A stretch of DNA of 64,000 nt, from contig JAKSBK010000095.1 of the NCBI GenBank assembly GCA_022361155.1, positions 27,462 to 91,461 of the forward strand, read 5' to 3'. A program made the position numbers and the translations under genes. Under the pieces are notes generated by a model. The model had not been told where the DNA came from. It made no database searches and was given only the letters and a program-made list of their open reading frames with translations. Shown here piece after piece: positions 20,080-57,740 of the stretch (positions within the stretch are counted from its first letter, which is position 1; each line of letters begins with the position of its first letter). This DNA comes from Pseudomonadota bacterium. Its GTDB lineage: Bacteria > Myxococcota_A > Polyangia > Polyangiales > JAKSBK01.

Positions 20080-20310
20080 GTGAGCAGATCCCCAAGAAAA
20101 GCCCGTCGTTGCCGTCCTAGGCCCAGCCCCGACAACGCGGCTGCGGTGACCGGCCCCCGCGAGGGAACGCTGGCGCCTCACGCGCCTGCCGAATCGGAGT
20201 CCATGGCCCATCTACGCAAGGACAAGGTCGCGCGCTTGCGCCGGGCCATCAAGAACGGTTCTTTTCGCGTCGATGTCGATCGCCTGGTGGACGAGATGCT
20301 GGGTCTCTGA
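20080..20310 (+). CDS. FlgM-family (anti-sigma-28-like) small protein
   Basis: The C-terminus KVARLRRAIKNGSFRVDVDRLVDEML closely follows the FlgM C-terminal helix pattern (compare Salmonella [26 protein letters not shown]). The N-terminal half is basic and disordered. Confidence 0.6.
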   Translation: MSRSPRKARRCRPRPSPDNAAAVTGPREGTLAPHAPAESESMAHLRKDKVARLRRAIKNGSFRVDVDRLVDEMLGL

Positions 20311-20355
20311 CACGCGGGCGCTCTGCCGTGCCTCGCGGCGTGCTCAATCGGGCGC

Positions 20356-20832
20356 GTGGACATGGCCGGGCCAGCATGCTTAGTTAGCCCAAAGGGGGGC
20401 GGAGGGTTCCCGATGGGACGCGAGGGTATCGACCCACAGCAAGCCGACCGGGAATTGAGGACGCGGGCTGCCCGTATCCGCTCGGAGGATCTCGAGCGTA
20501 TCCTGGAGCGAAAACAGGAGTTGCAGAACAAGCTGGAGCACGTTCCCGGCAAGTTCGGCCAGCTCGTCAATCAGGTCAAGCTCCTGTTCGAGATGATCAA
20601 GGACTACTGGCAGGGCAACTACAGCACCGTGCCATGGACCTCCATAGCCATGGCGGCCGGAGCGCTTCTGTATTTCCTGGCCCCTATCGACCTCATGCCC
20701 GATTTCTTCCCCGGGGTCGGATACGTGGACGACGCGCTGGTCGTGGCGCTGGCGATCAACGCGCTGCAGGAAGATCTGCGCGCGTATTGCGCGTTCAAGG
20801 GCTACGACTTCGCCAAGTACTTTGGGGGTTAA
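20356..20832 (+). CDS. DUF1232 (YkvA-family) membrane protein
   Basis: Signature LAPIDLMPDFFPGVGYVDDALVVALAINAL. The start could be the internal Met at 20413. Confidence 0.75.
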   Translation: MDMAGPACLVSPKGGGGFPMGREGIDPQQADRELRTRAARIRSEDLERILERKQELQNKLEHVPGKFGQLVNQVKLLFEMIKDYWQGNYSTVPWTSIAMAAGALLYFLAPIDLMPDFFPGVGYVDDALVVALAINALQEDLRAYCAFKGYDFAKYFGG

Positions 20833-23715: not shown

Positions 23716-24882
23716 GTGACAACGAGCCGCCCACCAGCGAGGCACGCCTCGCCTTACCCGTACGGGCGCTGGCCCAAGCTGAGCCGCGGCCAGGTGGAGC
23801 TGCTCCGTCGCTGCGTGCACCGATTCGCTGGTATCGAACTGGGTATGGCTCTCGATACCGCCAGCAAGCTGCTCGGCGCGCCCGTACGGTTCCGACTCAC
23901 CGGGGCTCGGCCGGGGCCGCCCGAAGATGCCTTGCCGCCGGATGGCCGGCCCGTGGTGGTCGCGGTGATCGACGACGCCGCAGGCCATTTGTGGGTCGCT
24001 GAGATCGACCAGCTGCTGGCGGCCGTGGTGGTGGACCGTGCGCTCGGGGGCGACGGCAACTCGGGCATCGGGCGCGGGGTGTTCCCAGCGGACGAGTTCT
24101 CCAAGGGGGTGCTGGCCTACGTGCTGGCACGTTTACTGGCTCCCAGCGGGCAATGCTTGTGCGCGATCGATGTCCGACCCGAACGGATCAGCTCCCTGAA
24201 GCGGTCAGCGCCCTGCGATGCCGGCGCGTGCTTCGAGGTCTGGGTCGAGCCCGTCCGCGGCCATGTGCAGCTGTGGACCAGCGCGTCCGCGTGGTCCTCT
24301 TGCGGCGCGCCGCAGCTGCCCCCGGCCCGACTGCCGGACACGCTTGCGCGCACACTGCCGTTTGCGCTAGCCGCCGACGCGGGCCAGGCCCAGCTCGAGC
24401 TTTCGGAGCTGCGGTCGCTGCTCCCTGGCGACATACTGGTGCCTGACGCCTGCGCGCTGTGCAGGGTCGAAGACGGCTGGCGGGGCCGAGCAGAGCTATC
24501 GCTCGGGGGCACAAAGCACACGCACTGCTCCTGCCATGTGCACGATGAGGCTCTGGTGATCGAGCGTGTTCTTCGAGTACAAGACGGGGCCATGGGCGAC
24601 AGCAAGTCTCACGAAGCGGAACAGGAGCCTTTTGACCCGCTCGTCCCCGCAGGCGACACACCGATCGAGCTTCGAGTGGAGCTCGCTCGCTTCCATCTGA
24701 CCCTGGCGGAGCTCGCAGCCCTACAGCCCGGTCAGGTCCTGAGCACGGGACGGCGGATAGGGGAGCACGTGGTGTTGCGAGCCGGCCCGGCGGCCATGGC
24801 CACGGGCGAGCTCGTGGACATCGAAGGCGAGGTCGGCGTGCGCATCGTTCGCGTGGCCGAGGACCCGGCCGCGGCTTCTTGA
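23716..24882 (+). CDS. SctQ/YscQ/FliN-like protein (SpoA domain at C-terminus)
   Basis: The C-terminal ~70 aa, IELRVELARFHLTLAELAALQPGQVLSTGRRIGEHVVLRAGPAAMATGELVDIEGEVGVRIVRV, fits the FliN/SpoA pattern. GTG start. Confidence 0.7.
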   Translation: MTTSRPPARHASPYPYGRWPKLSRGQVELLRRCVHRFAGIELGMALDTASKLLGAPVRFRLTGARPGPPEDALPPDGRPVVVAVIDDAAGHLWVAEIDQLLAAVVVDRALGGDGNSGIGRGVFPADEFSKGVLAYVLARLLAPSGQCLCAIDVRPERISSLKRSAPCDAGACFEVWVEPVRGHVQLWTSASAWSSCGAPQLPPARLPDTLARTLPFALAADAGQAQLELSELRSLLPGDILVPDACALCRVEDGWRGRAELSLGGTKHTHCSCHVHDEALVIERVLRVQDGAMGDSKSHEAEQEPFDPLVPAGDTPIELRVELARFHLTLAELAALQPGQVLSTGRRIGEHVVLRAGPAAMATGELVDIEGEVGVRIVRVAEDPAAAS

Positions 24883-25895
24883 CTGGACCCGCCTCGCGCG
24901 GGTGCTCGGGCAGGCCGCGGCAAAGCCGAGCAGACCGTGGTTCGGACCCTCGGGCTCACGGCGGCCTCTTGTTGGGTGCGCGCGGCAGGGCGAGGTAGAG
25001 AGCGTCGCTGCGGGCAAGCTTTGCGGGGGCGTCGCTGGGCGCGGGACGCGGGCGGCGATCGTCGGGGATGGCTCGTGATGCGCCGGGGATGGCTCGTGAT
25101 GCGCCGGGGCGGTGCCACGTCGCGGCCCGAAGGGGCGGCCACCGACGGTAGTGCGCCCATCGGTTCAGGCTCCACGGCCTGCAGAGCTTGGCTGCTCGGG
25201 CTCGATCCCCCTGACCCGGCAGCTCCCGCGCCGCTCCGGAACAGGCGCTGCCACAAGCGGGCCCCTGGTCGCACGGCCCAGGCAAGTGCGACCGCGAGCA
25301 AAACGCAGGCGACGGCATAAAACCCGACGCACGCGCTCAGGCCCCTGCGCAGCGCCAGCATGAGCCGGCGAATCCCGGATGCGCTCGCTCGAGCGGCACC
25401 GGGCACGAGCTCGCTACGCGCACCCTTGGTGTCCGTGGCGGTCACGCTTCGATCGTTGCGCCGCGAAGGTAGCGGTGGGGGCATCGCGGGCGCGTAGGGT
25501 AGGGTGAGGCGTGCGCCGGTCGAGCTGCGCGCTGCAAGCAGGGCCTGCTCGCTGCCGCGGGACTCACCCTGGTGGGAGTCGTGCACCGCGGATCGCCCGG
25601 CTGCGGTGTCGCTGGCGCGCTGCTCCAGGAAGGGCGACTCGTAGCCCAAACGCATCACCAGTCGCGGCACCTCGTCTTCGATCACGATGCCCACCGACTC
25701 GATGAGGCAGCGACGTCGGGACTCGTCGCGTACCCCGGTCCGCAGCTTCAGGAATGGAAGAACCTGCTCGACCGTCATCCCGCGCCCGTCGCGCCGGGTG
25801 ACGCGCGCGTTGATCGCCGCCGTCACGGTTTCCAAAAGGAGCCGCTCGTTCGTTTCTTGGTCGAGCTCGATCGACGGTGCTTGTGCCATGCTCAT
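24732..25895 (-). CDS. hypothetical single-pass membrane protein (weak call, low-complexity C-terminal half)
   Basis: 387-codon ORF. The N-terminal ~95 aa look globular. One TM helix (VGFYAVACVLLAVALAWAV). The Pro/Arg/Ser-rich tail overlaps the convergent SctQ-like gene by 151 nt. Confidence 0.4.
   Translation of the reverse strand: MSMAQAPSIELDQETNERLLLETVTAAINARVTRRDGRGMTVEQVLPFLKLRTGVRDESRRRCLIESVGIVIEDEVPRLVMRLGYESPFLEQRASDTAAGRSAVHDSHQGESRGSEQALLAARSSTGARLTLPYAPAMPPPLPSRRNDRSVTATDTKGARSELVPGAARASASGIRRLMLALRRGLSACVGFYAVACVLLAVALAWAVRPGARLWQRLFRSGAGAAGSGGSSPSSQALQAVEPEPMGALPSVAAPSGRDVAPPRRITSHPRRITSHPRRSPPASRAQRRPRKACPQRRSLPRPAARTQQEAAVSPRVRTTVCSALPRPARAPARGGSSQEAAAGSSATRTMRTPTSPSMSTSSPVAMAAGPARNTTCSPIRRPVLRT
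25064..25105. repeat. perfect 21-bp tandem duplication
   Basis: ggggatggctcgtgatgcgcc occurs twice head to tail (encodes PRRITSH x2 on the minus strand). Confidence 0.9.
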
Positions 25896-45317: not shown

Positions 45318-45369
45318 CGGTTTGCGCACGGCCCCAGCTTGTGGGAGAACGCCTGCGGGCCTGGGAGCA

Positions 45370-46443
45370 ATGGACGACCCGAAAAAAGAGGATAAAACGG
45401 GCGCTTCGAAGCATACGCAAGACGACGACCACAATCGCGACCCCATCGAGGCAGGGCGCGACCCCATCGAGGCAGAGATCGTGGAGAGCTCGACTGTCGA
45501 GCCGCTCCAGGCGGAGGTTGCCGGCGTCCCAGCCTCGGACGCTGACGAGACCAAATCGGCCGCTTCGAGCCTCGCCAGCCGGAACCTTGGAGGCGTGAGG
45601 CTTGCTCGCTACGACGCGCTCCAGGTCTATATGCGCGACGTGCAGCGCTACGCGCTGCTCGAGCCCGACGAGGAGCGGCGACTCGCTGCGCGCTATCGCA
45701 AGACGGGTGACGTGGACGCGGCCGCACAGCTGGTCACGGCCAATTTGCGGCTCGTGGTGAAGATCGCCTACGACTACCGTCGTGCCTATCGCAACCTGCT
45801 TGATTTGATACAGGAAGGCAACATCGGGCTCATGCAGGCGGTGAAGAAGTACGACCCTTATCGAGGCGTCAAGCTGTCAACCTACGCCGCCTGGTGGATT
45901 CGCGCCTACATCCTGCGATTCATCCTGAACAACGCCCGCCTGGTGAAGCTGGGGACGACCCAGGCGCAACGCAAGCTCTTCTTCAATCTCCGAAAGGAGA
46001 AGGCCAAGCTAAGCGCGTTAGGCATCGATGCGACACCCGAGGTCGTGGCCAAACGCTTGAAGGTGCCCACCGAGGAGGTCGTGCAGATGGACCGGCGGCT
46101 CGCCTCGGGCGATCTATCCCTCGATGCGCCCTCCGGCCGTGAGGGGTCGTCGAGCACGCGAGTAGAACTGCTTCCTGCAGAGTCCAAACGCATCGATGAG
46201 CTGCTCGCCGACGAGGAGTACGGTACGCTGCTCAAGAGCAGAATCCACCAGTTTGGCAACACCCTGTCCGGCAAGGAGGCCCGAATCTTCGATGAACGGC
46301 TGCTCGCCGAAACCCCACGGACCCTGGCCGAGCTGGGCAAGGAGTTTGGAGTAAGCAGAGAGCGAGTCCGGCAATTGGAGAAGCGTCTGCAGGGAAAGCT
46401 CAGAGCCTATTTGGATGACGAGCTACGCAGCGCGGCAACGTAG
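45370..46443 (+). CDS. RNA polymerase sigma factor, sigma-32 (RpoH) family
   Basis: Region 2 has LVKIAYDYRRAYRNLLDLIQEGNIGLMQAVKKYDP..STYAAWWIRA. RpoH-box-like QAQRKLFFNLRKEK. Region 4 has LAELGKEFGVSRERVRQLE. Acidic N-terminal extension. Confidence 0.9.
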   Translation: MDDPKKEDKTGASKHTQDDDHNRDPIEAGRDPIEAEIVESSTVEPLQAEVAGVPASDADETKSAASSLASRNLGGVRLARYDALQVYMRDVQRYALLEPDEERRLAARYRKTGDVDAAAQLVTANLRLVVKIAYDYRRAYRNLLDLIQEGNIGLMQAVKKYDPYRGVKLSTYAAWWIRAYILRFILNNARLVKLGTTQAQRKLFFNLRKEKAKLSALGIDATPEVVAKRLKVPTEEVVQMDRRLASGDLSLDAPSGREGSSSTRVELLPAESKRIDELLADEEYGTLLKSRIHQFGNTLSGKEARIFDERLLAETPRTLAELGKEFGVSRERVRQLEKRLQGKLRAYLDDELRSAAT

Positions 46444-46445
46444 CG

Positions 46446-47345
46446 GTGACCTCGGCCCAGTCGCGTTCCAGGAGAAAGGCCGTTCCTGCCGGACGGGGGC
46501 GTCTGTCCATCGTAGCGACACCCATCGGCAACCTCGAAGACATCACGCTACGCGCGCTAAGCGTCCTGCGTTCGGCGGACCTGATTCTTGCCGAAGATAC
46601 GCGTCGAACTCGAGCCCTGTGTGCGCGGCATCACATCGTGCGGCGCGTCCACAGCTTTCACGCCTACTCGGGAAGGCGCGAGCTCGAGCGACGGGTCGAG
46701 GATCTACGGGCGGGCGCGCACATCGCGCTGGTCAGCGACGCCGGGACCCCCTTGCTCAGCGACCCAGGCGCGGATTTGGTGCGGGCGGCGCACGAAACGG
46801 GTGCCAGGGTAGAGTCGCTGCCCGGCCCAAGCGCCATTACCTGCGCGCTGGCGGGAGCTGGGCTTGGAACCGACGATTTCCGCTTTGTTGGGTTCCTACC
46901 GCGCAAGGGTCGGGGCCGACGCCAACGGTTGGAGGAGATCGCTCGCGCTGACTACGCGACCGTGTTGTTCGAAGCACCGTCCCGGCTGGGCGCAACGCTG
47001 GACGAGCTCGCGAGGCTGTCACCGAGGCGCGCCGCCGCGGTGTGTCGTGAGCTCACGAAGATCCACGAGGAGTTTGTCCATGGCACGCTGACCGAGCTCG
47101 CAGCACACTTCGCCGGGAAGGCCCGCGGAGAGACCACCGTTGTCGTGGGGCCGGCACAGACGACCAGGGAAGCACGAATTGCCGAGGGACCCCTGCAAGC
47201 GCTCGTCAGCGATGCACTACAGCAAGGTCAGAGCCCGCGGGACGCTGCGCGTTGGGTCGCACGCAGCGCGGCTGTGGGCAGGCGCGATGCGTACGCGCGC
47301 GTACTGGCCGAGTTGAGGCGGCGCACGCGAAACTCCCAGCTATAG
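46446..47345 (+). CDS. rsmI: 16S rRNA (cytidine1402-2'-O)-methyltransferase
   Basis: LSIVATPIGNLEDITLRALSVLRSADLILAEDTR, SDAGTPLLSDPG, and the tetrapyrrole-methylase fold. Confidence 0.92.
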   Translation: MTSAQSRSRRKAVPAGRGRLSIVATPIGNLEDITLRALSVLRSADLILAEDTRRTRALCARHHIVRRVHSFHAYSGRRELERRVEDLRAGAHIALVSDAGTPLLSDPGADLVRAAHETGARVESLPGPSAITCALAGAGLGTDDFRFVGFLPRKGRGRRQRLEEIARADYATVLFEAPSRLGATLDELARLSPRRAAAVCRELTKIHEEFVHGTLTELAAHFAGKARGETTVVVGPAQTTREARIAEGPLQALVSDALQQGQSPRDAARWVARSAAVGRRDAYARVLAELRRRTRNSQL

Positions 47346-48731: not shown

Positions 48732-48898
48732 ACTAGTCCTTCAACCGCGTGACCTCGATCGCCCTCACGGCCGGTCTGGCGCCGTCTTCCGCGTCCTCCT
48801 CCTTGAAATGGGACCTGCCATTCCTGTGTCGTCGTCCTTGCATCCGGCACCAGCTCCACCGCGATCATCGATCAATGTCACGCGTTTGAAGGACTAGT
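48732..48898 (-). promoter_or_regulatory. long-range 20-nt inverted repeat (19/20) bracketing the intercistronic spacer
   Basis: The arms are 48732-48751 (actagtccttcaaccgcgtg) and 48879-48898 (cacgcgtttgaaggactagt). The upstream arm contains the PP2C stop codon. The downstream arm contains the GAAGGA Shine-Dalgarno 5 nt before GTG 48731. Confidence 0.5.
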
Positions 48899-50180
48899 CC
48901 TGTACGGCCTCGCTCACGAGCGGATCCACTTCTTCCATGGACAGTCTTCCCCGCGCGTCGCCCAGCTCCTTCGAGGTACTGCGCAGACGCTTTGCAAGGA
49001 CACCCAGAAAGCTCCACAGCAGTTTCACAGCAACGTCGTGGTCCTCCCTCACGATGTCGAAGAACTGCTTGCGACGCAGCACGATGAGCTTGGACTCCAA
49101 GATGCTCGTAACGCTCGCGCTGCGAGGTGCCCTGTCGATCAGCGCCATTTCTCCAAAATGCTGGCCAGCACCAAGAACCACGATCTCGTTGTCTCCCGAG
49201 TGCACACGAACCTCACCCGAGAGCACGATGTAGAGCTCTTCACCGTCGTCGCCCTCCTTGACGATGACCTCGTCGGGTCCGAAGCACTTGCTTTCGGTAA
49301 AACCCATCACCCGTACGAGCTCCTGATAGGTCAGGTAGCGGAAGACCGGCATCTTGTGCAGGACCTCCAACTTGAGATTGACCTCTCGAGCAAGCGGATC
49401 CGGGCCAGCTTCCTCGGGCGCCTCGAGCACGATCGCGCTAACGTGGTCGGCACCTCCTCGCTGTCGAACCGCATTGATGAAGAGCTGGGCGACTTGATCG
49501 GACGGGCCTTCCTCGAAGGTCTTGCGAATGTCGCTTGGCTCGAGATGCCCACTCAAGGCATCCGTGCACATTAGAAGACGATCGCCCGGCAGCAGGTCGA
49601 GATCGAACGTGTCCGCCTCGACGCTTTGGTGAAAGCCCACGGCTCGCGTAACGACGTTCTTGTATTCCAGCTTCTCGGCCTGTCGCTGCGTCAATCGGCC
49701 ACGCTTGAGCAGCTCGTTTATCAGAAGATGGTCTTCCGTGAGCTGGTGCACCGAACCCTCGCGGACGAGGTACACTCGCGAGTTGCCCACATGCGCCAGG
49801 TAGCCCCGCGAGCCAACGACCAGCAGCGCGTCCAGCGTCGTGCCGGCGCCCCGCTTCGAGGGCTCGGCTTCGGCCCGGGCAAACACGGCCGCGCACGCCT
49901 GCTGCAATGCCTTTTCCATCAGGCGCAGCAAGTCTTCGCGGGCCCTTGGCGACAGCCCGTTCTTCACGCCGTCGATGACCGCGGTTTCGGCGAGCAGGAC
50001 TTGGCGAAAAGTTTGTACCGCCAAACCGCTCGCTTCCGCGCTCGCCTCGTGCGATCCGACGCCGTCAGCCACCAGAAACAAGCCGAGGTCGCCATCCACA
50101 AGCACGCTGTCCGCGCCAGCACGTGAGGCGTTGCCGGAGTCGGCCGAGGACCAGAAACGCAGGGCCTTTCCTTCACTCAT
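48894..50180 (-). CDS. PP2C-family Ser/Thr phosphatase fused to a cyclic-nucleotide-binding domain
   Basis: The PP2C part has LFLVADGVGSH, TTLDALLV, and LLMCTDAL. The cNMP-binding part has GDDGEELYIVLSGEV...FGEMALIDRAPRSASV. Confidence 0.9.
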   Translation of the reverse strand: MSEGKALRFWSSADSGNASRAGADSVLVDGDLGLFLVADGVGSHEASAEASGLAVQTFRQVLLAETAVIDGVKNGLSPRAREDLLRLMEKALQQACAAVFARAEAEPSKRGAGTTLDALLVVGSRGYLAHVGNSRVYLVREGSVHQLTEDHLLINELLKRGRLTQRQAEKLEYKNVVTRAVGFHQSVEADTFDLDLLPGDRLLMCTDALSGHLEPSDIRKTFEEGPSDQVAQLFINAVRQRGGADHVSAIVLEAPEEAGPDPLAREVNLKLEVLHKMPVFRYLTYQELVRVMGFTESKCFGPDEVIVKEGDDGEELYIVLSGEVRVHSGDNEIVVLGAGQHFGEMALIDRAPRSASVTSILESKLIVLRRKQFFDIVREDHDVAVKLLWSFLGVLAKRLRSTSKELGDARGRLSMEEVDPLVSEAVQD

Positions 50181-50235: not shown

Positions 50236-51180
50236 CTACCGGTTTGGGCCCATACGCCGGCCCCAACGGCGCGAGCGCAGGCCCAGCCAAACGACCGGCA
50301 ACACCCACAGCAACCCAGCCGGCGGGCGCCCGCCCGCACCGGGGGGACCGCTTAGGCTGCAAAGCGGTGCGAAGAAACTCCCCGACAGGGGATCGAAGCA
50401 TGTCCGCAACTCGTTGCCTGACAGGTTGCCCATACCATCGACCGCGACGATCGCCACGCACACCGGGCTGCCAAGCTCGTCGGGCCCAAGGACGAATCCG
50501 GTGTTCACGCTGCCGCCGGCAAGGTGACGTTCCCTCCTGCGGAGCACCGGCGCCTGCAGGTCCTCGGCGTTCGTCAGAAAGACCAGATACTCCAGGCTAC
50601 CCTCGGATCCCGAAGTCACCGCGGGCGGAAAGATCAGCGAAACAAGCCGGCTGCCGTCCGGTCCACCACAACTTGCAGCGGGATCGGTGGACACCTCCAG
50701 AGGTCTGGCTCCAGGGGGAAACATGGGGGGATCGACGCCCAACGTCTCACCCGTCTTGAAGCAGGTCTGAGCTCTCGCGAGCGTGCTGGGCGAACCCTGG
50801 GCCGTGACGACGTCGGCCCAGTACCAGGTACTGTTCCTGAAGCTGCGATCAGGCGTGAAGGCCAGCGTATGGGAGTCGAGTTGCCGGAGGGCTCCCGCGA
50901 TGCGGCGGACCGCGTCCTTCGGCGTACAGGTCGTGGCGTCGAGCTCGAGCAGCGTAAAGGGGTTGGCGTTGAGCTTCGATACCTCGATCGAGTGGCGAAA
51001 GCGCATTATGATGTGCGCGTCGAGCGTCACTCCCTGGGCGCCGCTGGCCGGAATCCACTCGACGCGCTGCTGGGACGCCGGCATAGCGCCGCAGCCCACG
51101 TCCTGGCCATGGGCCGTCCCCTGCATTGCCAGCGCGGCCCATGCGGCCACAGCGATCAACGCCGGCGTGCGAGCAGACAT
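50236..51180 (-). CDS. secreted protein with MYXO-CTERM-like C-terminal sorting signal
   Basis: Signal peptide MSARTPALIAVAAWAALAMQGTAHG. The C-terminus is Cys-containing (LCSLSGPPGAGG), then a hydrophobic helix (LLWVLPVVWLGL), then RSRRW. Start at ATG 51180. Confidence 0.75.
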   Translation of the reverse strand: MSARTPALIAVAAWAALAMQGTAHGQDVGCGAMPASQQRVEWIPASGAQGVTLDAHIIMRFRHSIEVSKLNANPFTLLELDATTCTPKDAVRRIAGALRQLDSHTLAFTPDRSFRNSTWYWADVVTAQGSPSTLARAQTCFKTGETLGVDPPMFPPGARPLEVSTDPAASCGGPDGSRLVSLIFPPAVTSGSEGSLEYLVFLTNAEDLQAPVLRRRERHLAGGSVNTGFVLGPDELGSPVCVAIVAVDGMGNLSGNELRTCFDPLSGSFFAPLCSLSGPPGAGGRPPAGLLWVLPVVWLGLRSRRWGRRMGPNR

Positions 51181-51248
51181 GACTTGCCAGTATAGCCGGA
51201 GCGGCATGCATCGGCAGCGTCCACGCCGACATGCTATGAAACGCTGCC

Positions 51249-51740
51249 GTGAGTGAGCATCACGATATACCGTTCGCCCCCACCCATGGCGAGGCTGACT
51301 ACTTCGCACGGCAGGCTAGCGAAGGCGTAGCCCTTGCAGCGACGGTGGCCGGTGATCCCGGCGCCGGCCTCGCGGCTGCGGGCTTGTCGCCGGCCTTGCG
51401 TGAGGTCGCGTGCGCTGTCGCCCGAGAGCTTTCGCTGCTGAATCAGATGGGTCGCAGGCAGGAAGTAGCCCGCCTCGCCCATAGCTACGCCGGGCCACTG
51501 TCGCTGACCGACGCCGCACGACTCGGCGGGTTGCCGCACCGGGCACGGGCCCTTGTACGCAGCCAGCGGCTCATCGCGGGGGCGGCCGAGGAGCCCTCGG
51601 ACGTGCCTGGCCGCCCTGCGCTGCGCGAGGGCTTCGCGGCGGACCCCGGTCTTCGCAGCGCCCTTCGACGCGCTCTGGAGATGCCGCTTCAACCCGACGG
51701 CCCTCCTGCGCGAGGGGAAGCATTGAGCAGGGTCGATTGA
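51249..51740 (+). CDS. hypothetical protein, translationally coupled to the SctL/FliH-like gene
   Basis: 163-codon Ala/Arg-rich ORF with a GTG start. Its stop overlaps the next start by 4 nt. Confidence 0.45.
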   Translation: MSEHHDIPFAPTHGEADYFARQASEGVALAATVAGDPGAGLAAAGLSPALREVACAVARELSLLNQMGRRQEVARLAHSYAGPLSLTDAARLGGLPHRARALVRSQRLIAGAAEEPSDVPGRPALREGFAADPGLRSALRRALEMPLQPDGPPARGEALSRVD

Positions 51741-52324
51741 GCAGGATCATACGTGCGAGGCCTCAGGCGGGGACGCCTTCGGACCGAGCCGAACCTCGGG
51801 CACCGGATGGGCCCAACGAGCTGCGGGCGCTGCTGGAGTCGATGCACTACCGCAGCGCTCTCGTAGACGGCGCACGCGAGGAGCTGATCGAGCTCGCGAC
51901 CGAACTGGCGCGGCTTGTGATCGGCAACGAGCCGAGCACCCGACCCGATGTGATTGCACGCTGGGCAAGCGACCTGCTTGACCGCACCCGCAGAGCACGC
52001 ACGGCTGTTTTGACGGTCAACCCACGGGACGAACCCTCGGCACGGCAGGCCCTCGAACAGCTCGAGGCGACACGTCCATGGCTGCAGTCGCTCAGCGTGC
52101 GGGCGGATCCCGAGGTGGGCCGTGGGGGTTGCGTTGTCCATACGGACCTCGGCCGGCTCGATGCGCGCGTGGAGGTAAGGCTCGCTGCCCTGGCCGGTGC
52201 TCTGACCTCTGTCACCGGGGATTGCACACGGCTCCCAGCGCGCCCGCGACAACCCAGCGACCACAGGCTAAACACGAGCGGTGAGCGAGAACCGGATTCG
52301 GAGCCCCCACACACGGTCACCTGA
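51737..52324 (+). CDS. FliH/SctL (YscL/HrpE)-family protein
   Basis: The C-terminal block LTVNPRDEPSARQALEQL...SVRADPEVGRGGCVVHTDLGRLDARVEVRLAAL follows the FliH/SctL signature (ADP..GGC..ET..G..DA....L). Confidence 0.65.
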   Translation: MSRIIRARPQAGTPSDRAEPRAPDGPNELRALLESMHYRSALVDGAREELIELATELARLVIGNEPSTRPDVIARWASDLLDRTRRARTAVLTVNPRDEPSARQALEQLEATRPWLQSLSVRADPEVGRGGCVVHTDLGRLDARVEVRLAALAGALTSVTGDCTRLPARPRQPSDHRLNTSGEREPDSEPPHTVT

Positions 52325-53279
52325 AGCGGCAGGCTCTGGCGCCGGCGCCGGGCGGGCCGGTCCGCGCTGGGGATTGGCGCTTGTCCTTTTTGCAATGACC
52401 CTGGTATCCACCACGTACGTGGGCGCGGCGGCGATGGCGGGCGAGGACCCGCTGGCGGGTGGGCGCTGGTCCGCCGGCTTCGCCTTCTCGATCCCTCTGA
52501 TGACGATCTTGCTGTCGCACGAGCTGGGTCACTTCTTCGCGGGCCGCTACCACGGGATCGACGTGTCCGCGCCCTATTTCATTCCGATGCCGGTTTTTCT
52601 GCTCGGCACCATGGGCGCCGTCATCGTCATCCGCGGCCCGATTCGTACACGCAACGCGCTGCTGGATGTCGGAGCGTCGGGACCGCTGATCGGGCTGCTC
52701 GTGGCGCTGCCCGTGCTGGTGTACGGACTGCTGGAATCGCCGGTACAGCCTATCCCGGACGCTCCGGTGCTGATCGAAGGCCGCTCCATACTCTACGTGG
52801 CGCTGCTCTATCTCACCAAGGGCCCGATAGCCGATGGCTACGACGTGTTTCTGACTCCGACCGCGCTGGCGGGATGGGCCGGGCTATGGGTCACCATGCT
52901 CAATCTGATTCCGGTGGGACAGCTGGATGGAGGGCACGTCGCGTACGCGCTGTTCGGTGAACGGCAGCAATCGCTGTCGCGGCGCTTTCGCGCGGCGCTG
53001 CCGTGGCTGGCCGCGGGCGTGGGGTTGGCGTACGCGGCGAGCGCGTATGCTCGAGGCAAACAGGGCGATGCGCTCGTAGGAGAATTGCAGGCCGGTTTGC
53101 CATGGCTCGTATGGTGGGTCGTGCTCGGCCTCATGCGTAGAATGTCACCCGAGGAGCACCCACCAACCGATGCGGGGCCCTTATCGGCACCTCGCAAGGT
53201 GGTCGCGCAGGTCACACTCGGCCTCTTTCTCCTGCTGTTCATGCCGGCCTGGCTCCGAGTGAGCTCGGGTGCGCCGTAG
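52281..53279 (+). CDS. site-2 protease family (peptidase M50) intramembrane metalloprotease
   Basis: HELGHFFAGRYHG (HExxH in a TM helix) and NLIPVGQLDGGHV (second zinc-ligand motif). Multiple TM helices. It overlaps the preceding gene by 44 nt if GTG 52281 is used. Confidence 0.88.
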   Translation: MSENRIRSPHTRSPEAAGSGAGAGRAGPRWGLALVLFAMTLVSTTYVGAAAMAGEDPLAGGRWSAGFAFSIPLMTILLSHELGHFFAGRYHGIDVSAPYFIPMPVFLLGTMGAVIVIRGPIRTRNALLDVGASGPLIGLLVALPVLVYGLLESPVQPIPDAPVLIEGRSILYVALLYLTKGPIADGYDVFLTPTALAGWAGLWVTMLNLIPVGQLDGGHVAYALFGERQQSLSRRFRAALPWLAAGVGLAYAASAYARGKQGDALVGELQAGLPWLVWWVVLGLMRRMSPEEHPPTDAGPLSAPRKVVAQVTLGLFLLLFMPAWLRVSSGAP

Positions 53280-53365: not shown

Positions 53366-55123
53366 GTGCCCCCGCGGACTCACCGCTGCGGATTCAACAC
53401 CGCCGTTCCATCACTCGACCGTGATGGCTCGACCAACGCCCCCCATGCTGGCGCGAACGGCCTCGGTGCGCGGTCGCCATGGGTGCTGGTGTGCCTGCTG
53501 GCCGTGGCGGTCTGGAGTCAGCCGGCCCGGGCCTGGACCAGGGCGTACATCACCAGCGCCAAGAGTCACGTTCAACTGCTGAGCCCAGCTCGAGTGCGGG
53601 TTGTCCTCGTGCTCACGTTGCAGGTACGTGGTGGCTGGCTCACGCACCTGGACATCGCAGGACTGGACCGCAGCCTGCTGCTCGACCCGCTCAAGCCGCC
53701 CTGGATCGAGGGGGCCAAGGGAGACAAGTACCGGCCGCTCGCAAGGCTGATGCGTGACGGCACCTTGCGTTTGAGCTTCCCCAACAAGCGGCAGGCCCCC
53801 TGGCGCGGGCGCTACCACGTGGTGGTGATGTACACGAGCGCTATCGCGGGCTCCGTCGCTGGGGACCACACCCGCTACGAGTGGACGCTCCCTGCCTGGC
53901 GAGGCGGCTTGACCGATGTGCGCATTTCGGTCGCGGCTCCGGCGGGCTCTTACGCAGAGCGCTACCCAGAAGGACACGACCAGGTCAGCCGGCGAGAGCT
54001 CCCCTCCCTGACCCTGCTGAGTTGGCGCAAGGTCCATCTGCCGCGTACGCTGCCCTGGACGGTGCGCTTCGCCGTGCCGAGCGGCGGCGCTGTGACCGGT
54101 CAGGTTGATCAAGCCGGCCGACCTCCCCCGGTCGCATTGGAGGTCAAGGCGCCAGCATGGTGGGTCTCGGGGCTAATCGCACTGCTGACGCTCCTCAAGC
54201 TGCACACAGTGCGGGTTGTCGTGCTGCGCCGCCGCCTGCGGCGACGTCCCCTGCTGCAGCTGCGCTCCGGGCGGGTTCGATGCTTTTTGGCGGTGACGCT
54301 GGCTGCAGCGTCGCCCGCAGCCTTCGGCTTCGCCCCGTGGGCAGGCGTGGCGCTGCTGGCCCTTTGCGTGGCTCTTGGGCTCGATCGAAGCTTCGTGCGC
54401 CTACCCGAGGCCGCGACCGCCTCGTGGCGCCCGCTCGAGGCCGGCGATCGCAACCGCGTCCGTGCCGGGCGCTGGCTGGACGTGCTCGGCGGAGCAGCTT
54501 GGTTTGATGCCACGACGCCCCTCGGGGCCGCGCTCTTGCTGCTCGCGATGGCCCTGACCGCCACGCTCCATGCGTCCGGTCACCGGGAGGCGCAGTGGGC
54601 CGCGCTGTCGTGGGCACTGGCCACACCGCTGTGGCTGTCGGCCACCCGAAAGCAGTTGCCCCCCGCCCTGGCCGATCGCGTCGCGCTGCTCGATCGTTAC
54701 GCCCACTCGCTGCCTGGACAACCGCGAAGCGCGGTCGAAGTGAGTCTCGAGGTGTTGGCATCCGAGCTTTGGCGCCTCGGCGACGCGCGGCTTGCGCTGC
54801 GGATGACCCCCCAGGCAGCCGCAGAGGCACGGCTGCATCTATGCATTCAGGAACACTGGCGCGGGGGAAGCTACGGCTTGCGCGCGTGCTGGGTGTGCGA
54901 CGCCGGCGCCGGTTCGACCTTCGCCGGCTCGGCCTTCGCGAATGCGCTCGAAGCCGCGCTCCCCGGCGGCACATGGACACGCGGTCAATACGTTCGGCCG
55001 GTTCTGGACGGGACAGCAGAGCTCGACGCCCTCAAAGCCGCGCTGCGCCAGGCGGCGAGCCATCCTGCCAAGGCGCCACCTACCCCTACGATCACTTCGA
55101 TAGTCGCTGACGCAGCGGCATAA
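53366..55123 (+). CDS. hypothetical membrane protein
   Basis: 585-codon ORF. Signal/anchor WVLVCLLAVAVWSQPARA, an extracytoplasmic domain of about 200 aa, then several TM helices. No family recognised. Confidence 0.6.
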   Translation: MPPRTHRCGFNTAVPSLDRDGSTNAPHAGANGLGARSPWVLVCLLAVAVWSQPARAWTRAYITSAKSHVQLLSPARVRVVLVLTLQVRGGWLTHLDIAGLDRSLLLDPLKPPWIEGAKGDKYRPLARLMRDGTLRLSFPNKRQAPWRGRYHVVVMYTSAIAGSVAGDHTRYEWTLPAWRGGLTDVRISVAAPAGSYAERYPEGHDQVSRRELPSLTLLSWRKVHLPRTLPWTVRFAVPSGGAVTGQVDQAGRPPPVALEVKAPAWWVSGLIALLTLLKLHTVRVVVLRRRLRRRPLLQLRSGRVRCFLAVTLAAASPAAFGFAPWAGVALLALCVALGLDRSFVRLPEAATASWRPLEAGDRNRVRAGRWLDVLGGAAWFDATTPLGAALLLLAMALTATLHASGHREAQWAALSWALATPLWLSATRKQLPPALADRVALLDRYAHSLPGQPRSAVEVSLEVLASELWRLGDARLALRMTPQAAAEARLHLCIQEHWRGGSYGLRACWVCDAGAGSTFAGSAFANALEAALPGGTWTRGQYVRPVLDGTAELDALKAALRQAASHPAKAPPTPTITSIVADAAA

Positions 55124-55661: not shown

Positions 55662-57740
55662 CTACTCAGGTATCAAGTCTCGTCCCGCAGGGCAAGCGAT
55701 CTCAACACCCGTCTCTCCCATGTCGGTACGCAGTATCTTGAACTCCACGCGCCGGTTCTTCTCCCAAGCCGCGGGATCGTGGCCGGCATCTACAGGACAG
55801 CGCTCGCCGTAACCCGCGCTTCGCAAACGATCGGGCATGATCCTGCGTGACAGCAGGGCGTCCACCACCGATGCCGCACGGGCCCGCGTCAGCTTGATGT
55901 TGTACGCATCGCTCGCGCGCTCGTCCGCGTGGCCCTGAACCTCCACCAGGCGCAGCTGCGGGTTGCCTTGCAGCGTTGCCGCTACCGCATCGAGGATGGG
56001 GAAGCTGCGTGGCAAGATTTCGGCGCTGTTCGTGGCGAAGTAGATCTTGTCGAGAACGACGATTTGATCCTCCTCTACGATGACCGAGCCCTCATCCGGG
56101 CAGCCGTCCTCATCCGCGGTCCCGTTGTAGGTTTCGGGATCGTTGGGACACTCGTCGTCGCGATCCAGAATCCGATCTTGGTCGTTATCCAGATCGGGAC
56201 AACCGTTGTCGTCCTCGAACTGGTCGATGTCCTCCGGATCCTCCGGGCACATGTCGTCGGAGTCCAGAATCCCATCCTTGTCGTTGTCCGGATCGGGGCA
56301 GCCGTTTTCGTCCTCGAAGCCGTCTCGATCCTCCGGGTCATCAGGACACTCGTCCGCGTTATCGAGAATTCCGTCGCCGTCACGATCCCCGAGCGACTCC
56401 TCCGGGCAGCCGTCGTGGTCTGCGTCGCCGTCGTGGTCCTCGGGGATCAGTGGGCACTCGTCGTCCACATCGAGGAGCCCGTCTCGGTCGTTGTCCGGAT
56501 CGGGGCAACCCTCGGCGTCCTCGAAACCGTCGAAATCTTCCGGCTCATCCGGACACTGGTCGACGTCATCCTTGTAGCCATCGCCGTCCCGGTCGCCGAT
56601 CGAAGGCTCGAACACGAAACCCAGCACCGCCCGAAGCTCCGCGGTATTGACGCCCTGCTGGACCTCGGCCCCCCCGGCCAGGGTCAAGTAGCTGTTGCGC
56701 TCCACGAAGACCTTTATCCCTCCAAGCGCCTCGACTCCGAGGCCCCCGCGCTGCCCGAACGCACCCATGACCTGGGCGCCGTAGGCTTCCCCAACAAGCT
56801 CGAGCGGTCCACCGATGCGCAGGCTCGTGGCCAAGCCGAACGTGATCAGGTCGTCGTACCGAATCTCGTCGCCTCCCATGGGCAGGGACGGACAGGTGGC
56901 GTTGGTGACCACACCGGTCGCGGGCTGCGCCTGGCAGTATGGTGGTGGCGGCGAAACGGGCGGCACCAGCGCAAGAGGATCCGAGCGGGCATTCAACCGG
57001 ACCGTGGCGCCTGGCGACGCGTTGAAACGGTAGCCCGCGTTCAGGCCAACCCGAAACCGAGACACGGGCATCCACTCGACGGCCAGGCTTGGCCAGACCG
57101 AGATCCCCGGCTCCCCGCTGAACGCCGCCGTATTGCCGGTTGGCAGCCCCAGCTGCAGCGTCAATGCGACGCCCAGCGGATCGTATTCGGCCCGCAACAG
57201 ACGTGCCTTGGCGTGCAACACCAGATCGCCAATGCCCTGAGCGTTGAGACCCGAAGGAAGCGCGACGTCGTTGTACAGGTTCGGGATCACGGTCTTCGGA
57301 CCGCTGAGCACCTGAATCGGAAGCTGGCCGCCCAGCACGAAGCGATTGAGCAAACCGTAGTTGAAGCTGAGCGTTCCGGTGAACGCTCGCGCGACCAGGT
57401 GCTTGTTACGCTCGAGCATCTCAGGCGAGGACGCCAAACCTCCCCCGATAGAGACGTCCGGATTGTACGTGAAGCCCTGATACGGAAGGATGTCCGAGCC
57501 GAGGTCCAGAATGAGACCGAAGCTGTAGTCCTTGTGGCCAAGCACGTCGGTGCCGTTGAGCGCGAGGTAGCCCTTGGAGTCGATGGGCTGTCTGAACAGG
57601 CGCACGTCAAGACCCCCACCGCTCGTCAGCTCGGCGGTCTGAGCGACGGCATCCACGCTGGGCGTCAGGGCAAGTGCAAGGACACACCCAATACGGCCAA
57701 TCCAGGAGTGCGGTACCCACCCACTCAGGTGGTGCAGCAT
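55662..57740 (-). CDS. OmpA-family outer membrane protein with thrombospondin type 3 (calcium-binding) repeats
   Basis: Signal peptide and an N-terminal beta-barrel-like region. Seven or more D.D.DG..D..D.CP repeats. The C-terminal OmpA domain has IYFATNSAEI...GHADERASDAYNIKLTRARA. Confidence 0.92.
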   Translation of the reverse strand: MLHHLSGWVPHSWIGRIGCVLALALTPSVDAVAQTAELTSGGGLDVRLFRQPIDSKGYLALNGTDVLGHKDYSFGLILDLGSDILPYQGFTYNPDVSIGGGLASSPEMLERNKHLVARAFTGTLSFNYGLLNRFVLGGQLPIQVLSGPKTVIPNLYNDVALPSGLNAQGIGDLVLHAKARLLRAEYDPLGVALTLQLGLPTGNTAAFSGEPGISVWPSLAVEWMPVSRFRVGLNAGYRFNASPGATVRLNARSDPLALVPPVSPPPPYCQAQPATGVVTNATCPSLPMGGDEIRYDDLITFGLATSLRIGGPLELVGEAYGAQVMGAFGQRGGLGVEALGGIKVFVERNSYLTLAGGAEVQQGVNTAELRAVLGFVFEPSIGDRDGDGYKDDVDQCPDEPEDFDGFEDAEGCPDPDNDRDGLLDVDDECPLIPEDHDGDADHDGCPEESLGDRDGDGILDNADECPDDPEDRDGFEDENGCPDPDNDKDGILDSDDMCPEDPEDIDQFEDDNGCPDLDNDQDRILDRDDECPNDPETYNGTADEDGCPDEGSVIVEEDQIVVLDKIYFATNSAEILPRSFPILDAVAATLQGNPQLRLVEVQGHADERASDAYNIKLTRARAASVVDALLSRRIMPDRLRSAGYGERCPVDAGHDPAAWEKNRRVEFKILRTDMGETGVEIACPAGRDLIPE

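Follow-up and report, generated by a model that had tools for sequence, protein, structure and literature searches.

Proteins of the FliH/SctL family bind FliN/SctQ through their N terminus and the N terminus of the FliI/SctN ATPase through their C-terminal domain (FliH-FliI complex, PDB 5B0O), and they tether and restrain this ATPase. To our knowledge, they are known solely as partners of FliI/SctN ATPases and, distantly, as relatives of ATP-synthase stalks. Site-2 proteases (S2Ps) classically act on anti-sigma factors, and in Bacillus SpoIVFA and BofA restrain the protease SpoIVFB. Genes coupled in translation typically have overlapping stop and start codons, and their products often form complexes. 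Myxobacteria possess a needle-less type III secretion system (T3SS*) with SctN and SctL (PMC10433427).

Here, we analysed a locus from a Polyangia-lineage myxobacterium in which a FliH/SctL-family gene is followed by a gene for an M50 S2P instead of an ATPase gene. The window, i.e. the whole 64-kb stretch of DNA analysed, contains three chained genes, here referred to as ORF1, SctL' and M50 (Table 1). An earlier note, made from the sequence alone, had described these three ORFs and their overlaps of 4 nt (ORF1/SctL'; TTGA, 51737-51740) and 44 nt (SctL'/M50; 52281-52324), and we found both as described.

Table 1. Features of the window referred to in the text
Feature	Position	Strand	Properties
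ORF1	51249-51740	+	GTG start; 163 aa; no known family
SctL' (FliH/SctL family)	51737-52324	+	TTG start; 195 aa; PF02108
C-terminal FliH/SctL signature in SctL'	52100-52192	+	residues 122-152; RADPEVGRGGCVVHTDLGRLDARVEVRLAAL
M50 site-2 protease	52281-53279	+	GTG start; 332 aa; PF02163
P585 multi-pass membrane protein	53366-55123	+	3' of M50; syntenic homologs
P357 secreted Big_5 (Ig-like) protein	50236-51180	-	PF13205; divergent from ORF1
SctQ-family gene, stand-alone	23716-24882	+	388 aa; TIGR02551; PF01052
FlgM-like gene	20080-20310		76 aa; PF04316

The three genes of the triad and their neighbours

Public gene callers run on identical DNA reported an antisense 152-aa ORF instead of ORF1, and started the FliH-like gene at Met36 and M50 at Met39; because of these differences, we re-examined the start sites. 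In tblastn, ORF1 on the + strand matched the syntenic position of a relative with E=5.5e-11, as opposed to 0.32 for the antisense translation. Moreover, the ORF1 profile recovered a + strand ORF at the same position in every related locus (E 1e-27 to 1e-47), and the identical 163-aa protein has been annotated by NCBI (P0131). Codon-position GC gave a slight preference to the antisense ORF over ORF1; nevertheless, the homology of ORF1 and the NCBI annotation rule out the antisense ORF as the true gene. Judged by these homologs, we conclude that ORF1 is a real gene. The TTG at 51737 is backed by the invariant N terminus M-x-R-[IV]-I-R common to the relatives of SctL', and the GTG at 52281 is the sole in-frame start 5' of the conserved first transmembrane helix of M50. 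In the closest pair, dN/dS was 0.13 for ORF1, 0.18 for SctL' and 0.19 for M50; by this measure, purifying selection acts on each of the three genes. Four near-identical contigs (L001-L004) had zero polymorphism within the triad, and a scan for promoters and terminators gave no informative sites, the terminator-like matches falling inside coding sequence.

The earlier note assigned the middle ORF to the FliH/SctL family, an assignment that the lack of a profile hit would have refuted. SctL' matched PF02108 (FliH) clearly (E=6.5e-18, 65.3 bits, cutoff 24.1) over positions 7-127 of the 128 in the profile, and the SctL' family profile matched FliH of PDB 5B0O (E=4.8e-12). The C-terminal signature quoted in the note, RADPEVGRGGCVVHTDLGRLDARVEVRLAAL, likewise proved correct, and its counterpart in Salmonella FliH lies in the C-terminal domain (residues ~100-133 of 5b0o_E); columns D124, G130, C132, V133, G139, D142, A143, R144 and E146 of the signature are invariant in the SctL' alignment. 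AF2 monomer models of ORF1 and SctL' were of low confidence (pLDDT 56-58); with the SctL' model, Foldseek returned the FliH chains of 5B0O best, followed by V/A-ATPase subunit E, and the SctL' profile gave weak matches to subunit b of ATP synthase (E=0.003) and to V-type subunit E. SctL' remained under every NCBIfam equivalog cutoff for FliH and SctL, scoring best with PRK05687.2-1 (FliH, 57.3 vs 180) and TIGR02499 (SctL, 38.2 vs 78.7).

SctL' proteins are on average ~40% identical to one another, and the orthologs keep the N-terminal motif, a full coiled coil and the C-terminal globular domain. Compared to these, SctL' of the window is atypical: ~40 aa of the coiled coil are missing, with a Pro-rich stretch in their place, and an extra low-complexity tail of 37 aa is present at the C terminus; a helix is still found at residues 26-64 in the low-confidence AF2 model. 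The GC3 of the SctL' gene is 0.72 and that of its neighbours 0.78. The N-terminal motif, which is invariant in SctL', is common to canonical, ATPase-linked myxobacterial SctL, and 33 core positions, including the whole C-terminal motif, are conserved in both groups. Altogether, constraint has shifted at ~45 positions: 32 positions conserved in canonical myxobacterial SctL are relaxed in SctL', including E171, T172 and T183 next to the core motif, while R121, A125 and G166 are newly invariant. The canonical sample was less diverse, which inflates this asymmetry. In a crude NJ tree built from C-terminal domains, the nearest relatives of SctL' were myxobacterial SctL proteins. As a test of SctL' monophyly, this tree was too poorly resolved for use: most SctL' proteins clustered, but two fell elsewhere and Anaeromyxobacter SctL was nested inside.

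M50 matched PF02163 (Peptidase_M50) with E=5.3e-19 and 68.9 bits (cutoff 27.2). It contains HELGH at residues 80-84 (nt 52518-52532), a second motif, NLIPVGQLDGGH, of the NxxPxxxxDG/LDG zinc-ligand type at residues 208-219 (nt 52902-52937) and at least four hydrophobic segments; the catalytic columns H80, E81, H84 and N208...D216 are invariant among orthologs. More than 3300 homologs were found, the best of them ~55-65% identical and the named ones from Myxococcota MAGs. The earlier note had taken M50 to be of the kind that cleaves anti-sigma factors. M50 is not an RseP-type enzyme of this kind: no PDZ or CBS domain was matched in M50, and the RseP equivalog TIGR00054 reached 16.4 bits (cutoff 147.55), covering residues 73-96 only. 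Similarity to solved S2Ps is at the level of motifs only (short matches to 7W6X and 7W6Y), and therefore no substrates can be assigned.

ORF1 matched no Pfam family and no PDB sequence. It is predicted to be cytoplasmic and all-helical; its AF2 model is helical but of low confidence (pLDDT 58), and with this model Foldseek found nothing (best E=2.7). A structure-based function for ORF1 was dropped on these grounds. Among 1.84 billion proteins, 136 representatives of the ORF1 family were found. ORF1 is the founding member of this small family, which is specific to the module. Canonical myxobacterial sctL is preceded by a gene for a ~300-aa protein, here UpX, which itself has no known family and no PDB match; its identity as FliG or SctK remained unresolved, with only a faint FliG_C match (E=0.24) and none in PDB. 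Between ORF1 and UpX, hmmsearch gave one cross-match (E=3.4e-6), and hhalign aligned 62-64 N-terminal columns with a probability of 67-74% and E ~3-5e-5, at a score of 40.0 vs 11-12 for shuffled or reversed controls. The alignment covers merely the N-terminal third of UpX. From these profile comparisons, the N-terminal half of ORF1 is probably related to UpX. ORF1 is confined to M50-type loci and UpX to ATPase-type loci, giving the parallel gene orders UpX-SctL-SctN and ORF1-SctL'-M50.

Downstream of M50, P585 has a putative signal peptide, a ~230-aa N-terminal domain and hydrophobic segments. P585 of the window had no Pfam, NCBIfam or PDB match, and an ortholog weakly matched DUF2207. The P585 gene comes after M50 in genomes with and without the SctL' link and directly after SctL' where M50 is absent; P585 is a candidate partner or substrate. 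Upstream, P357 matched PF13205 just above the cutoff (23.7 vs 23.6 bits) and probably starts at Met44 of the longest ORF (ATG 51180-51178); NCBIfam gave no support for a MYXO-CTERM tail. P357 accompanies the ORF1-SctL' cassette at most loci: in 12 of 16 genome module loci, as well as in L091, L094, L097, L104 and L158, a homolog is the next gene upstream of ORF1.

Conservation of the module and the ATPase slot

The earlier note would have been refuted had the triad been without synteny in any relative. We found the order ORF1-SctL'-M50 in ~26 loci from Polyangia-lineage Myxococcota, comprising loci in genome MAGs (L011, L013, L015, L020, L027, L028, L029, L032, L034, L051, L069, L078 and L089), four further loci (L010, L091, L094 and L095) and eight metagenome loci, the metagenome loci being found by a scan with the SctL' alignment. 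At 12 of the 15 readable junctions, the SctL' stop and the M50 start overlap by exactly 4 nt (NTGA). Both the gene order and this overlap have been kept across deep divergence. Comparison of these junctions indicates that the 4-nt overlap is the ancestral form and that the 44-nt form is peculiar to the window genome. In none of ~28 instances was the ORF1-SctL' cassette located elsewhere in the genome, and in L091, where the upstream context differs, the ORF1-SctL'-M50-P585 core is intact. By contrast, a well-sampled clade with a 306-aa M50 has the same genomic backbone without the cassette, and L016 and L040 have ORF1-SctL' without M50. Because M50 and the cassette each occur alone, the link between SctL' and M50 is conserved and not obligate. 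Moreover, the backbone (RpoH-like sigma factor, RsmI, PP2C-cNMP, P585, P186, OmpA and FHA) is syntenic with and without the cassette; therefore, the adjacency could partly reflect an inherited backbone order. The earlier note knew of no described coupling of such a stator to an S2P, and our literature search found no paper on FliH/SctL-S2P coupling.

In ~160 FliH/SctL loci, the next gene downstream was either FliI/SctN or M50 (twice P585), never both, and in every locus without M50 and with enough downstream sequence, an ATPase gene directly follows the FliH/SctL gene. M50 thus occupies the slot of the FliI/SctN ATPase in canonical loci. No FliI/SctN gene was present within +-6-10 kb of the module at any locus, and tblastn of the 64-kb window detected neither FliI/SctN nor FliG. 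A Pfam survey of 43.4-64 kb and 17.5-29.6 kb found housekeeping and signalling genes and no export-apparatus or ring cluster; the FlgM-like, SctQ and SctL' genes were the sole exceptions, each standing alone at distances of 27-31 kb. Outside these two stretches, the window was covered solely by that tblastn search. A SctN ATPase encoded elsewhere in these genomes may be the true partner of SctL' and is not excluded.

Both distant genes pointed to by the earlier note are present. The SctQ gene matched TIGR02551 (109.2 bits, cutoff 100.8) and PF01052 (67 bits), encodes a C-terminal FliN/SpoA domain, and lies outside any T3SS cluster, with a Ser/Thr kinase gene and BipA as its neighbours. The FlgM-like protein matched PF04316 with 33.2 bits (cutoff 25) and remained under the NCBIfam FlgM cutoff (32.3 vs 40.75). 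The sigma factor nearest the module, 6 kb upstream, is RpoH-like and not sigma-28.

Possible roles of the SctL'-ORF1 pair

Altogether, these observations suggest that parts of a secretion machine have been reused for the control of a protease. Specifically, we give an even chance to the explanation that the cytoplasmic T3SS pair represented by SctL' and ORF1 was duplicated and placed before M50, in the SctN/FliI slot, to give a conserved and co-translated module, and that the resulting scaffold controls the protease. SctL', as a cytoplasmic dimeric rod, would form this scaffold together with ORF1 on the cytoplasmic face of M50, with P585, and we infer by analogy that the scaffold would gate M50 or bring as yet unidentified substrates to it. 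The restraint of the ATPase by FliH/SctL and that of SpoIVFB by SpoIVFA/BofA serve as models. The conserved N terminus of SctL' may still dock onto a SctQ-type protein, for which the stand-alone SctQ of the window may be a candidate; its membership in the module has not been shown and there are no binding data. A more specific version, in which a sorting-platform-like assembly of a SctL' dimer, a UpX-derived ORF1 and possibly SctQ was exapted in Polyangia to dock onto an S2P and control it, is possible, and we put it forward only tentatively.

Against the explanation by protease control stand the lack of data on a physical interaction of SctL', ORF1 and M50, with monomer models at pLDDT 56-58 only; the absence of a conserved sequence handle on linked M50s, together with the separability of cassette and M50; and the truncated coiled coil and added tail of SctL' in the window. 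With respect to such a handle, a conserved FliI-like N-terminal extension of linked M50s was considered and rejected: their N-terminal tails are longer, yet variable and unconserved, and their length depends partly on start-codon calls.

Alternatively, SctL' could with ORF1 be an additional stator that still binds a SctN encoded elsewhere in the genome, in which case the adjacency of M50 would reflect co-regulation or an ATPase tethered to an M50/P585 complex rather than direct regulation of the protease. The 33 shared core positions and the N-terminal motif, the occurrence of SctN and SctL in the myxobacterial T3SS*, and the fact that the window holds only 64 kb of the genome all speak for this. 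However, canonical SctL/FliH genes always directly precede the ATPase gene and no ATPase gene is found near the modules, and relaxation at 32 canonical positions is accompanied by new invariant ones, even if the less diverse canonical sample inflates this asymmetry. We therefore regard an additional stator as unlikely. That the cassette merely sits beside M50 in a conserved backbone, without functional coupling, would agree with the synteny of the surrounding genes irrespective of the cassette and with the separate occurrence of both parts; it is hard to reconcile with an exact 4-nt overlap kept in 12 of 15 loci despite ~40% SctL' identity, with the absence of any other cassette location and with the unbroken core in L091, where the upstream context varies, and seems to us quite improbable.

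Two narrower possibilities concern the window itself. The SctL' gene could be a decaying, non-functional remnant in this genome, having lost part of its coiled coil to a Pro-rich stretch as well as its normal stop, hence the 37-aa extension and the 44-nt overlap, and having a GC3 below that of its neighbours. Yet its 195 codons form an intact frame without frameshifts or internal stops, neither the N-terminal motif nor any of the invariant C-terminal residues has been lost, the Pfam score is strong and the orthologs are clearly under purifying selection, so that decay appears very unlikely. Finally, the earlier note had proposed the FlgM-like protein as a candidate substrate, i.e. an SctL'-guided M50 would cleave an anti-sigma factor encoded 31 kb away. 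A FlgM-domain protein does exist in the window, and anti-sigma factors are classical S2P targets; nevertheless, it is a small soluble protein that lacks the hydrophobic segment an S2P substrate should have, it does not reach the NCBIfam cutoff, and at none of the loci examined is it syntenic with the module. Moreover, the conserved backbone encodes an RpoH-like sigma factor, not sigma-28. We give this proposal hardly any credence.

If the sorting-platform version is true, SctL' would be the first FliH/SctL-family stator to function without a rotary-type ATPase, and intramembrane proteolysis would be controlled in a new mode, from the cytoplasmic side. A conserved paralog, kept by purifying selection and with a membrane protease in the ATPase slot, would demonstrate that the stator scaffold lends itself to use in other membrane machines, and the module would add a case study of the exaptation of secretion-system parts. 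Moreover, an uncharacterised, widespread M50 subfamily would gain its first candidate regulators. The myxobacterial T3SS* is tied to predation, and a module controlling regulated proteolysis could link envelope signalling to the predatory lifestyle. The operon is testable, with ORF1 as a module-specific marker family and a lineage that includes a named genus (Sandaracinus).

Comparison with known systems

M50 shares with the RseP-type S2Ps of the sigma-E pathway the peptidase family (M50) and the zinc-binding motifs HExxH and LDG, which lie in transmembrane segments. RseP-type enzymes, however, have ~450 aa and one or two PDZ domains placed between their catalytic motifs, whereas M50 of the module has 332 aa and no PDZ domain, and unlike in the RseP pathway, no gene for an RseA-like anti-sigma factor or for sigma-E adjoins it. 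The resemblance to SpoIVFA/BofA-SpoIVFB is functional only and lies in a PDZ-less M50 encoded directly downstream of a co-expressed non-enzymatic protein that could position the protease or keep it inactive. SpoIVFA and BofA, which have no sequence relationship to SctL' or ORF1, reside in the membrane, in contrast to the predicted soluble, cytoplasmic nature of SctL' and ORF1, and M50 of the module is without a CBS domain. The peripheral stalks of rotary ATPases (F-type b/delta, V/A-type E) are distant homologs of FliH/SctL; their subunits always work with a hexameric ATPase, whereas none is encoded near SctL'.

SctL (YscL/HrpE/OrgB) of non-flagellar T3SS and flagellar FliH belong to the same PF02108 family as SctL', and the closest system is that of SctL in the myxobacterial T3SS* (M. 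xanthus MXAN_2434-2464 cluster). Unlike canonical sctL, the SctL' gene has no SctN/FliI or export-apparatus gene nearby and is followed by an overlapping M50 gene, and it is preceded by ORF1, not by the ~300-aa UpX. Similarly to SctL, SctL' orthologs have a coiled coil, of which the window protein lacks ~40 aa, and then an alpha/beta domain at the C terminus that bears the GGC..x..G.LDAR.E motif; with 178-204 aa, the orthologs are similar to SctL in length, and the N-terminal M-x-[RK]-[IVL]-[IV]-[RK]-G is shared by SctL' and canonical SctL of Polyangia and Anaeromyxobacter.

Gene structure of the ORF1-SctL′-M50 module

The earlier note had described three ORFs chained by overlaps of 4 nt (ORF1/SctL′) and 44 nt (SctL′/M50), the middle one with a FliH/SctL signature and the third encoding a site-2 protease (S2P) of the kind that cleaves anti-sigma factors. 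Coordinates and overlaps were reproduced; SctL′ matched the FliH profile PF02108 (E=6.5e-18; score 65.3 bits, cutoff 24.1), and the third protein matched Peptidase_M50, PF02163 (E=5.3e-19). Membership of the M50 family was thereby borne out, but the protease is not an RseP-type S2P. The signature peptide corresponds to SctL′ residues 122-152; in the crystal structure of the FliH-FliI complex (5B0O), these align to the C-terminal domain of FliH from Salmonella. The AF2 model of SctL′ is of low confidence (pLDDT 56 overall, 73-86 in the C-domain), and its best structural matches were the 5B0O FliH chains, followed by V/A-ATPase subunit E. SctL′ passed none of the NCBIfam equivalog cutoffs of FliH/SctL. 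Judged by profile and architecture, SctL′ is a member of the FliH/SctL family.

Features of the window discussed in the text
Feature	Coordinates	Strand	Remarks
FlgM-like gene	20080-20310	+	above Pfam cutoff, below NCBIfam cutoff
Stand-alone SctQ-family gene	23716-24882	+	NCBIfam TIGR02551 SctQ equivalog, 109.2 bits vs cutoff 100.8
387-aa ORF	24732-25895	-	overlaps SctQ gene 3′ end by about 150 nt
RpoH-like sigma factor, then RsmI	45322-47345	+	NF005143, 280.6 bits vs 241
PP2C phosphatase fused to cyclic-nucleotide-binding domain (PP2C-cNMP)	48894-50180	-	
P357, secreted Big_5 (Ig-like) protein	50236-51180	-	divergent from ORF1
Antisense ORF called instead of ORF1	51234-51692	-	automatic calls, identical metagenome contigs
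ORF1	51249-51740	+	163 aa
SctL′	51737-52324	+	195 aa; TTG start at 51737
M50	52281-53279	+	332 aa; GTG start at 52281
OmpA-family outer-membrane protein	55662-57740	-	

Public gene calls on identical metagenome contigs (L001-L004) replace ORF1 by an antisense ORF of 152 aa (or 82 aa) and place the starts of SctL′ and M50 later, at internal Met codons, so that SctL′ loses its conserved N-terminal motif and M50 its first transmembrane helix. Codon-position GC was ambiguous on the ORF1 strand, and the strand was decided by homology: the + frame matched the syntenic ORF of a relative with E=5.5e-11 compared with 0.32 for the antisense frame, and the 152-aa ORF was rejected. Moreover, most related loci have a + strand ORF at the corresponding position that an ORF1 profile detected (E 1e-27 to 1e-47), a few copies being too divergent to reach the threshold, and NCBI annotates the identical ORF1 protein. 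The TTG start of SctL′ is backed by its N-terminal sequence M-x-R-[IV]-I-R, which is invariant; in M50, no in-frame start other than the GTG lies 5′ of the first transmembrane helix, which is conserved. The miscalls of the three genes are systematic and lie in high-GC DNA. The ORF1 family is small, with 136 representatives in a set of 1.84 billion proteins, and falls into two length classes; no Pfam family or structural match was found for it.

Conservation of the gene order and the ATPase slot

Starting from M50 orthologs (>3300 matches; the best with 55-65% identity, the named ones being Myxococcota MAGs), we found a small ORF, a FliH-domain gene and M50, in this order, in five of seven sampled M50 contexts; the other two contexts, in which M50 is of the 306-aa class, have the same flanking backbone without the small ORF and the FliH-domain gene. 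A scan of reference genomes with an SctL′ alignment gave 80 loci. Of these, 16 carry the module, and all 16 come from Myxococcota MAGs (Sandaracinaceae, Sandaracinus, Polyangiales and 'Myxococcales'). The gene directly after SctL′ is M50 in 13 of these and P585, a membrane protein otherwise encoded after M50, in two (L016 and L040); one ends at a contig edge. Metagenomes added eight SctL′-M50 loci, and an ORF1-based look-up added one module locus on a 3.1-Mb contig. The order of the triad is, accordingly, kept in relatives. Of 15 junctions that could be read, 12 have an overlap of exactly 4 nt (NTGA) between the SctL′ stop and an in-frame M50 start; the 44-nt overlap in the window is a derived exception, arising from a 37-aa C-terminal tail on SctL′.

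All other FliH/SctL loci whose downstream sequence is long enough have the gene for the FliI/SctN ATPase immediately next; the following gene is either the ATPase or M50, never both together. No ATPase was found in 6-10 kb of flank on each side of module loci, and tblastn detected no FliI/SctN in the 64-kb window. These data show a conserved operon, bearing a signature of translational coupling, in which M50 occupies the usual ATPase slot and is preceded by an SctL paralog together with its upstream partner. The families are known and the conserved partnership is new; the earlier note knew of no described coupling of a stator to an S2P, and full-text literature searches likewise turned up no account of one between FliH/SctL and an S2P.

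In L016 (8001-9810) and L040 (8001-8973), a P585 homolog begins ~80-90 nt after the SctL′ stop and M50 is cleanly absent. Because P585 directly follows the ORF1-SctL′ cassette in both, its association with the cassette may be as constant as that of M50.

Genomic surroundings

The window contains no T3SS or flagellar cluster. The triad is neighboured by genes for the RpoH-like sigma factor, RsmI, the PP2C-cNMP phosphatase, P357, P585, a 186-aa protein, the OmpA-family protein and a double-FHA protein. The sigma factor has an unusually long N-terminal extension (~95 aa), and the sigma factor-RsmI pair lies upstream of M50 even in cassette-less genomes (L009, L093). The PP2C-cNMP gene, a possible signalling input, is conserved a short distance upstream of the module in many relatives (L007, L008, L010, L095 and others). 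P357 is gained or lost with ORF1-SctL′ in most loci; its C-terminus (Cys, Gly/Pro-rich stretch, hydrophobic helix, Arg-rich end) resembles a MYXO-CTERM-type sorting signal, for which there was no NCBIfam match. The OmpA-family gene adjoins the 186-aa gene in all relatives. Its product has a beta-barrel-like N-terminal region, separated from the OmpA domain by a long run of Asp-rich DxDxDG-type repeats, which are thrombospondin-3-like according to faint Pfam matches in orthologs.

The SctQ-like and FlgM-like genes reported previously are both present. The SctQ-family protein has a C-terminal FliN/SpoA domain, and its gene lies between those for a Ser/Thr kinase and BipA without other T3SS genes around. 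Because the N-terminus of SctL is established to dock on SctQ, this protein is a candidate partner of SctL′; its co-occurrence with the module was not determined. The overlapping 387-aa ORF has atypically high codon-position-2 GC (0.65) and no Pfam match, and is possibly not a real gene. The FlgM-domain protein has 76 aa, and its gene is immediately upstream of those for a DUF1232 protein and HisRS (20080-20832, +), with no flagellar genes in view.

Origin and possible function of the cassette

SctL′ keeps the whole architecture of canonical SctL. With the ATPase-linked SctL proteins of Polyangia and Anaeromyxobacter it has the N-terminal motif and 33 conserved positions in common; those proteins belong to the needle-less T3SS* lineage known from myxobacteria (PMC10433427). 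In canonical Polyangia loci, a gene for a conserved ~300-aa protein, UpX, adjoins sctL, usually directly upstream (L033, L050, L063, L074, L082; also L061, L086, L068; and 13 metagenome loci). UpX had no Pfam or PDB match beyond a faint one to FliG_C (E=0.24), and may be an undescribed cytoplasmic T3SS* component, perhaps an analogue of SctK or FliG. ORF1 is restricted to M50-type loci and UpX to ATPase-type loci. In hhalign, the two align over 62-64 N-terminal columns (probability 67-74%, E about 3-5e-5). The score was 40.0; the controls scored 12.0 (reversed profile), 11.0 ± 1.4 (column shuffles) and 10-13 (unrelated families). Because the orders UpX-SctL-SctN and ORF1-SctL′-M50 run parallel, we infer, with moderate strength, that UpX and SctL were duplicated as a pair and the copy was placed upstream of M50.

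Sequence-based prediction gives both SctL′ and ORF1 as soluble proteins. They could form a cytoplasmic scaffold on M50/P585 that would restrain the protease or feed substrates to it; this is inferred without interaction data, and the occurrence of cassette and M50 each alone in some loci counts against it. Alternatively, the adjacency of SctL′ and M50 may be merely inherited gene order, or SctL′ may still serve an SctN encoded elsewhere. SctL′ differs from canonical SctL in having gained near-invariant residues (R6, R121, A125, G166) and in being relaxed beside the core motif at E171, T172 and T183; this apparent shift in constraint, inflated by uneven sampling and without interface mapping, fits a changed partner. 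The window's copy of SctL′ might also be decaying; dN/dS in the closest pair of loci was 0.13 for ORF1, 0.18 for SctL′ and 0.19 for M50, and M50 retains HELGH and NxxPxxxLDGG. Least likely is the FlgM-like protein as M50 substrate: it is small and soluble, its gene shows no synteny with the module, and the sigma factor in the conserved backbone is RpoH-like.

SctL′ differs from the rest of the FliH/SctL family in lacking its functional hallmark, linkage to the ATPase. FliH restrains FliI, and SpoIVFA/BofA restrain SpoIVFB; the proposed SctL′/ORF1 scaffold would resemble both systems in logic.
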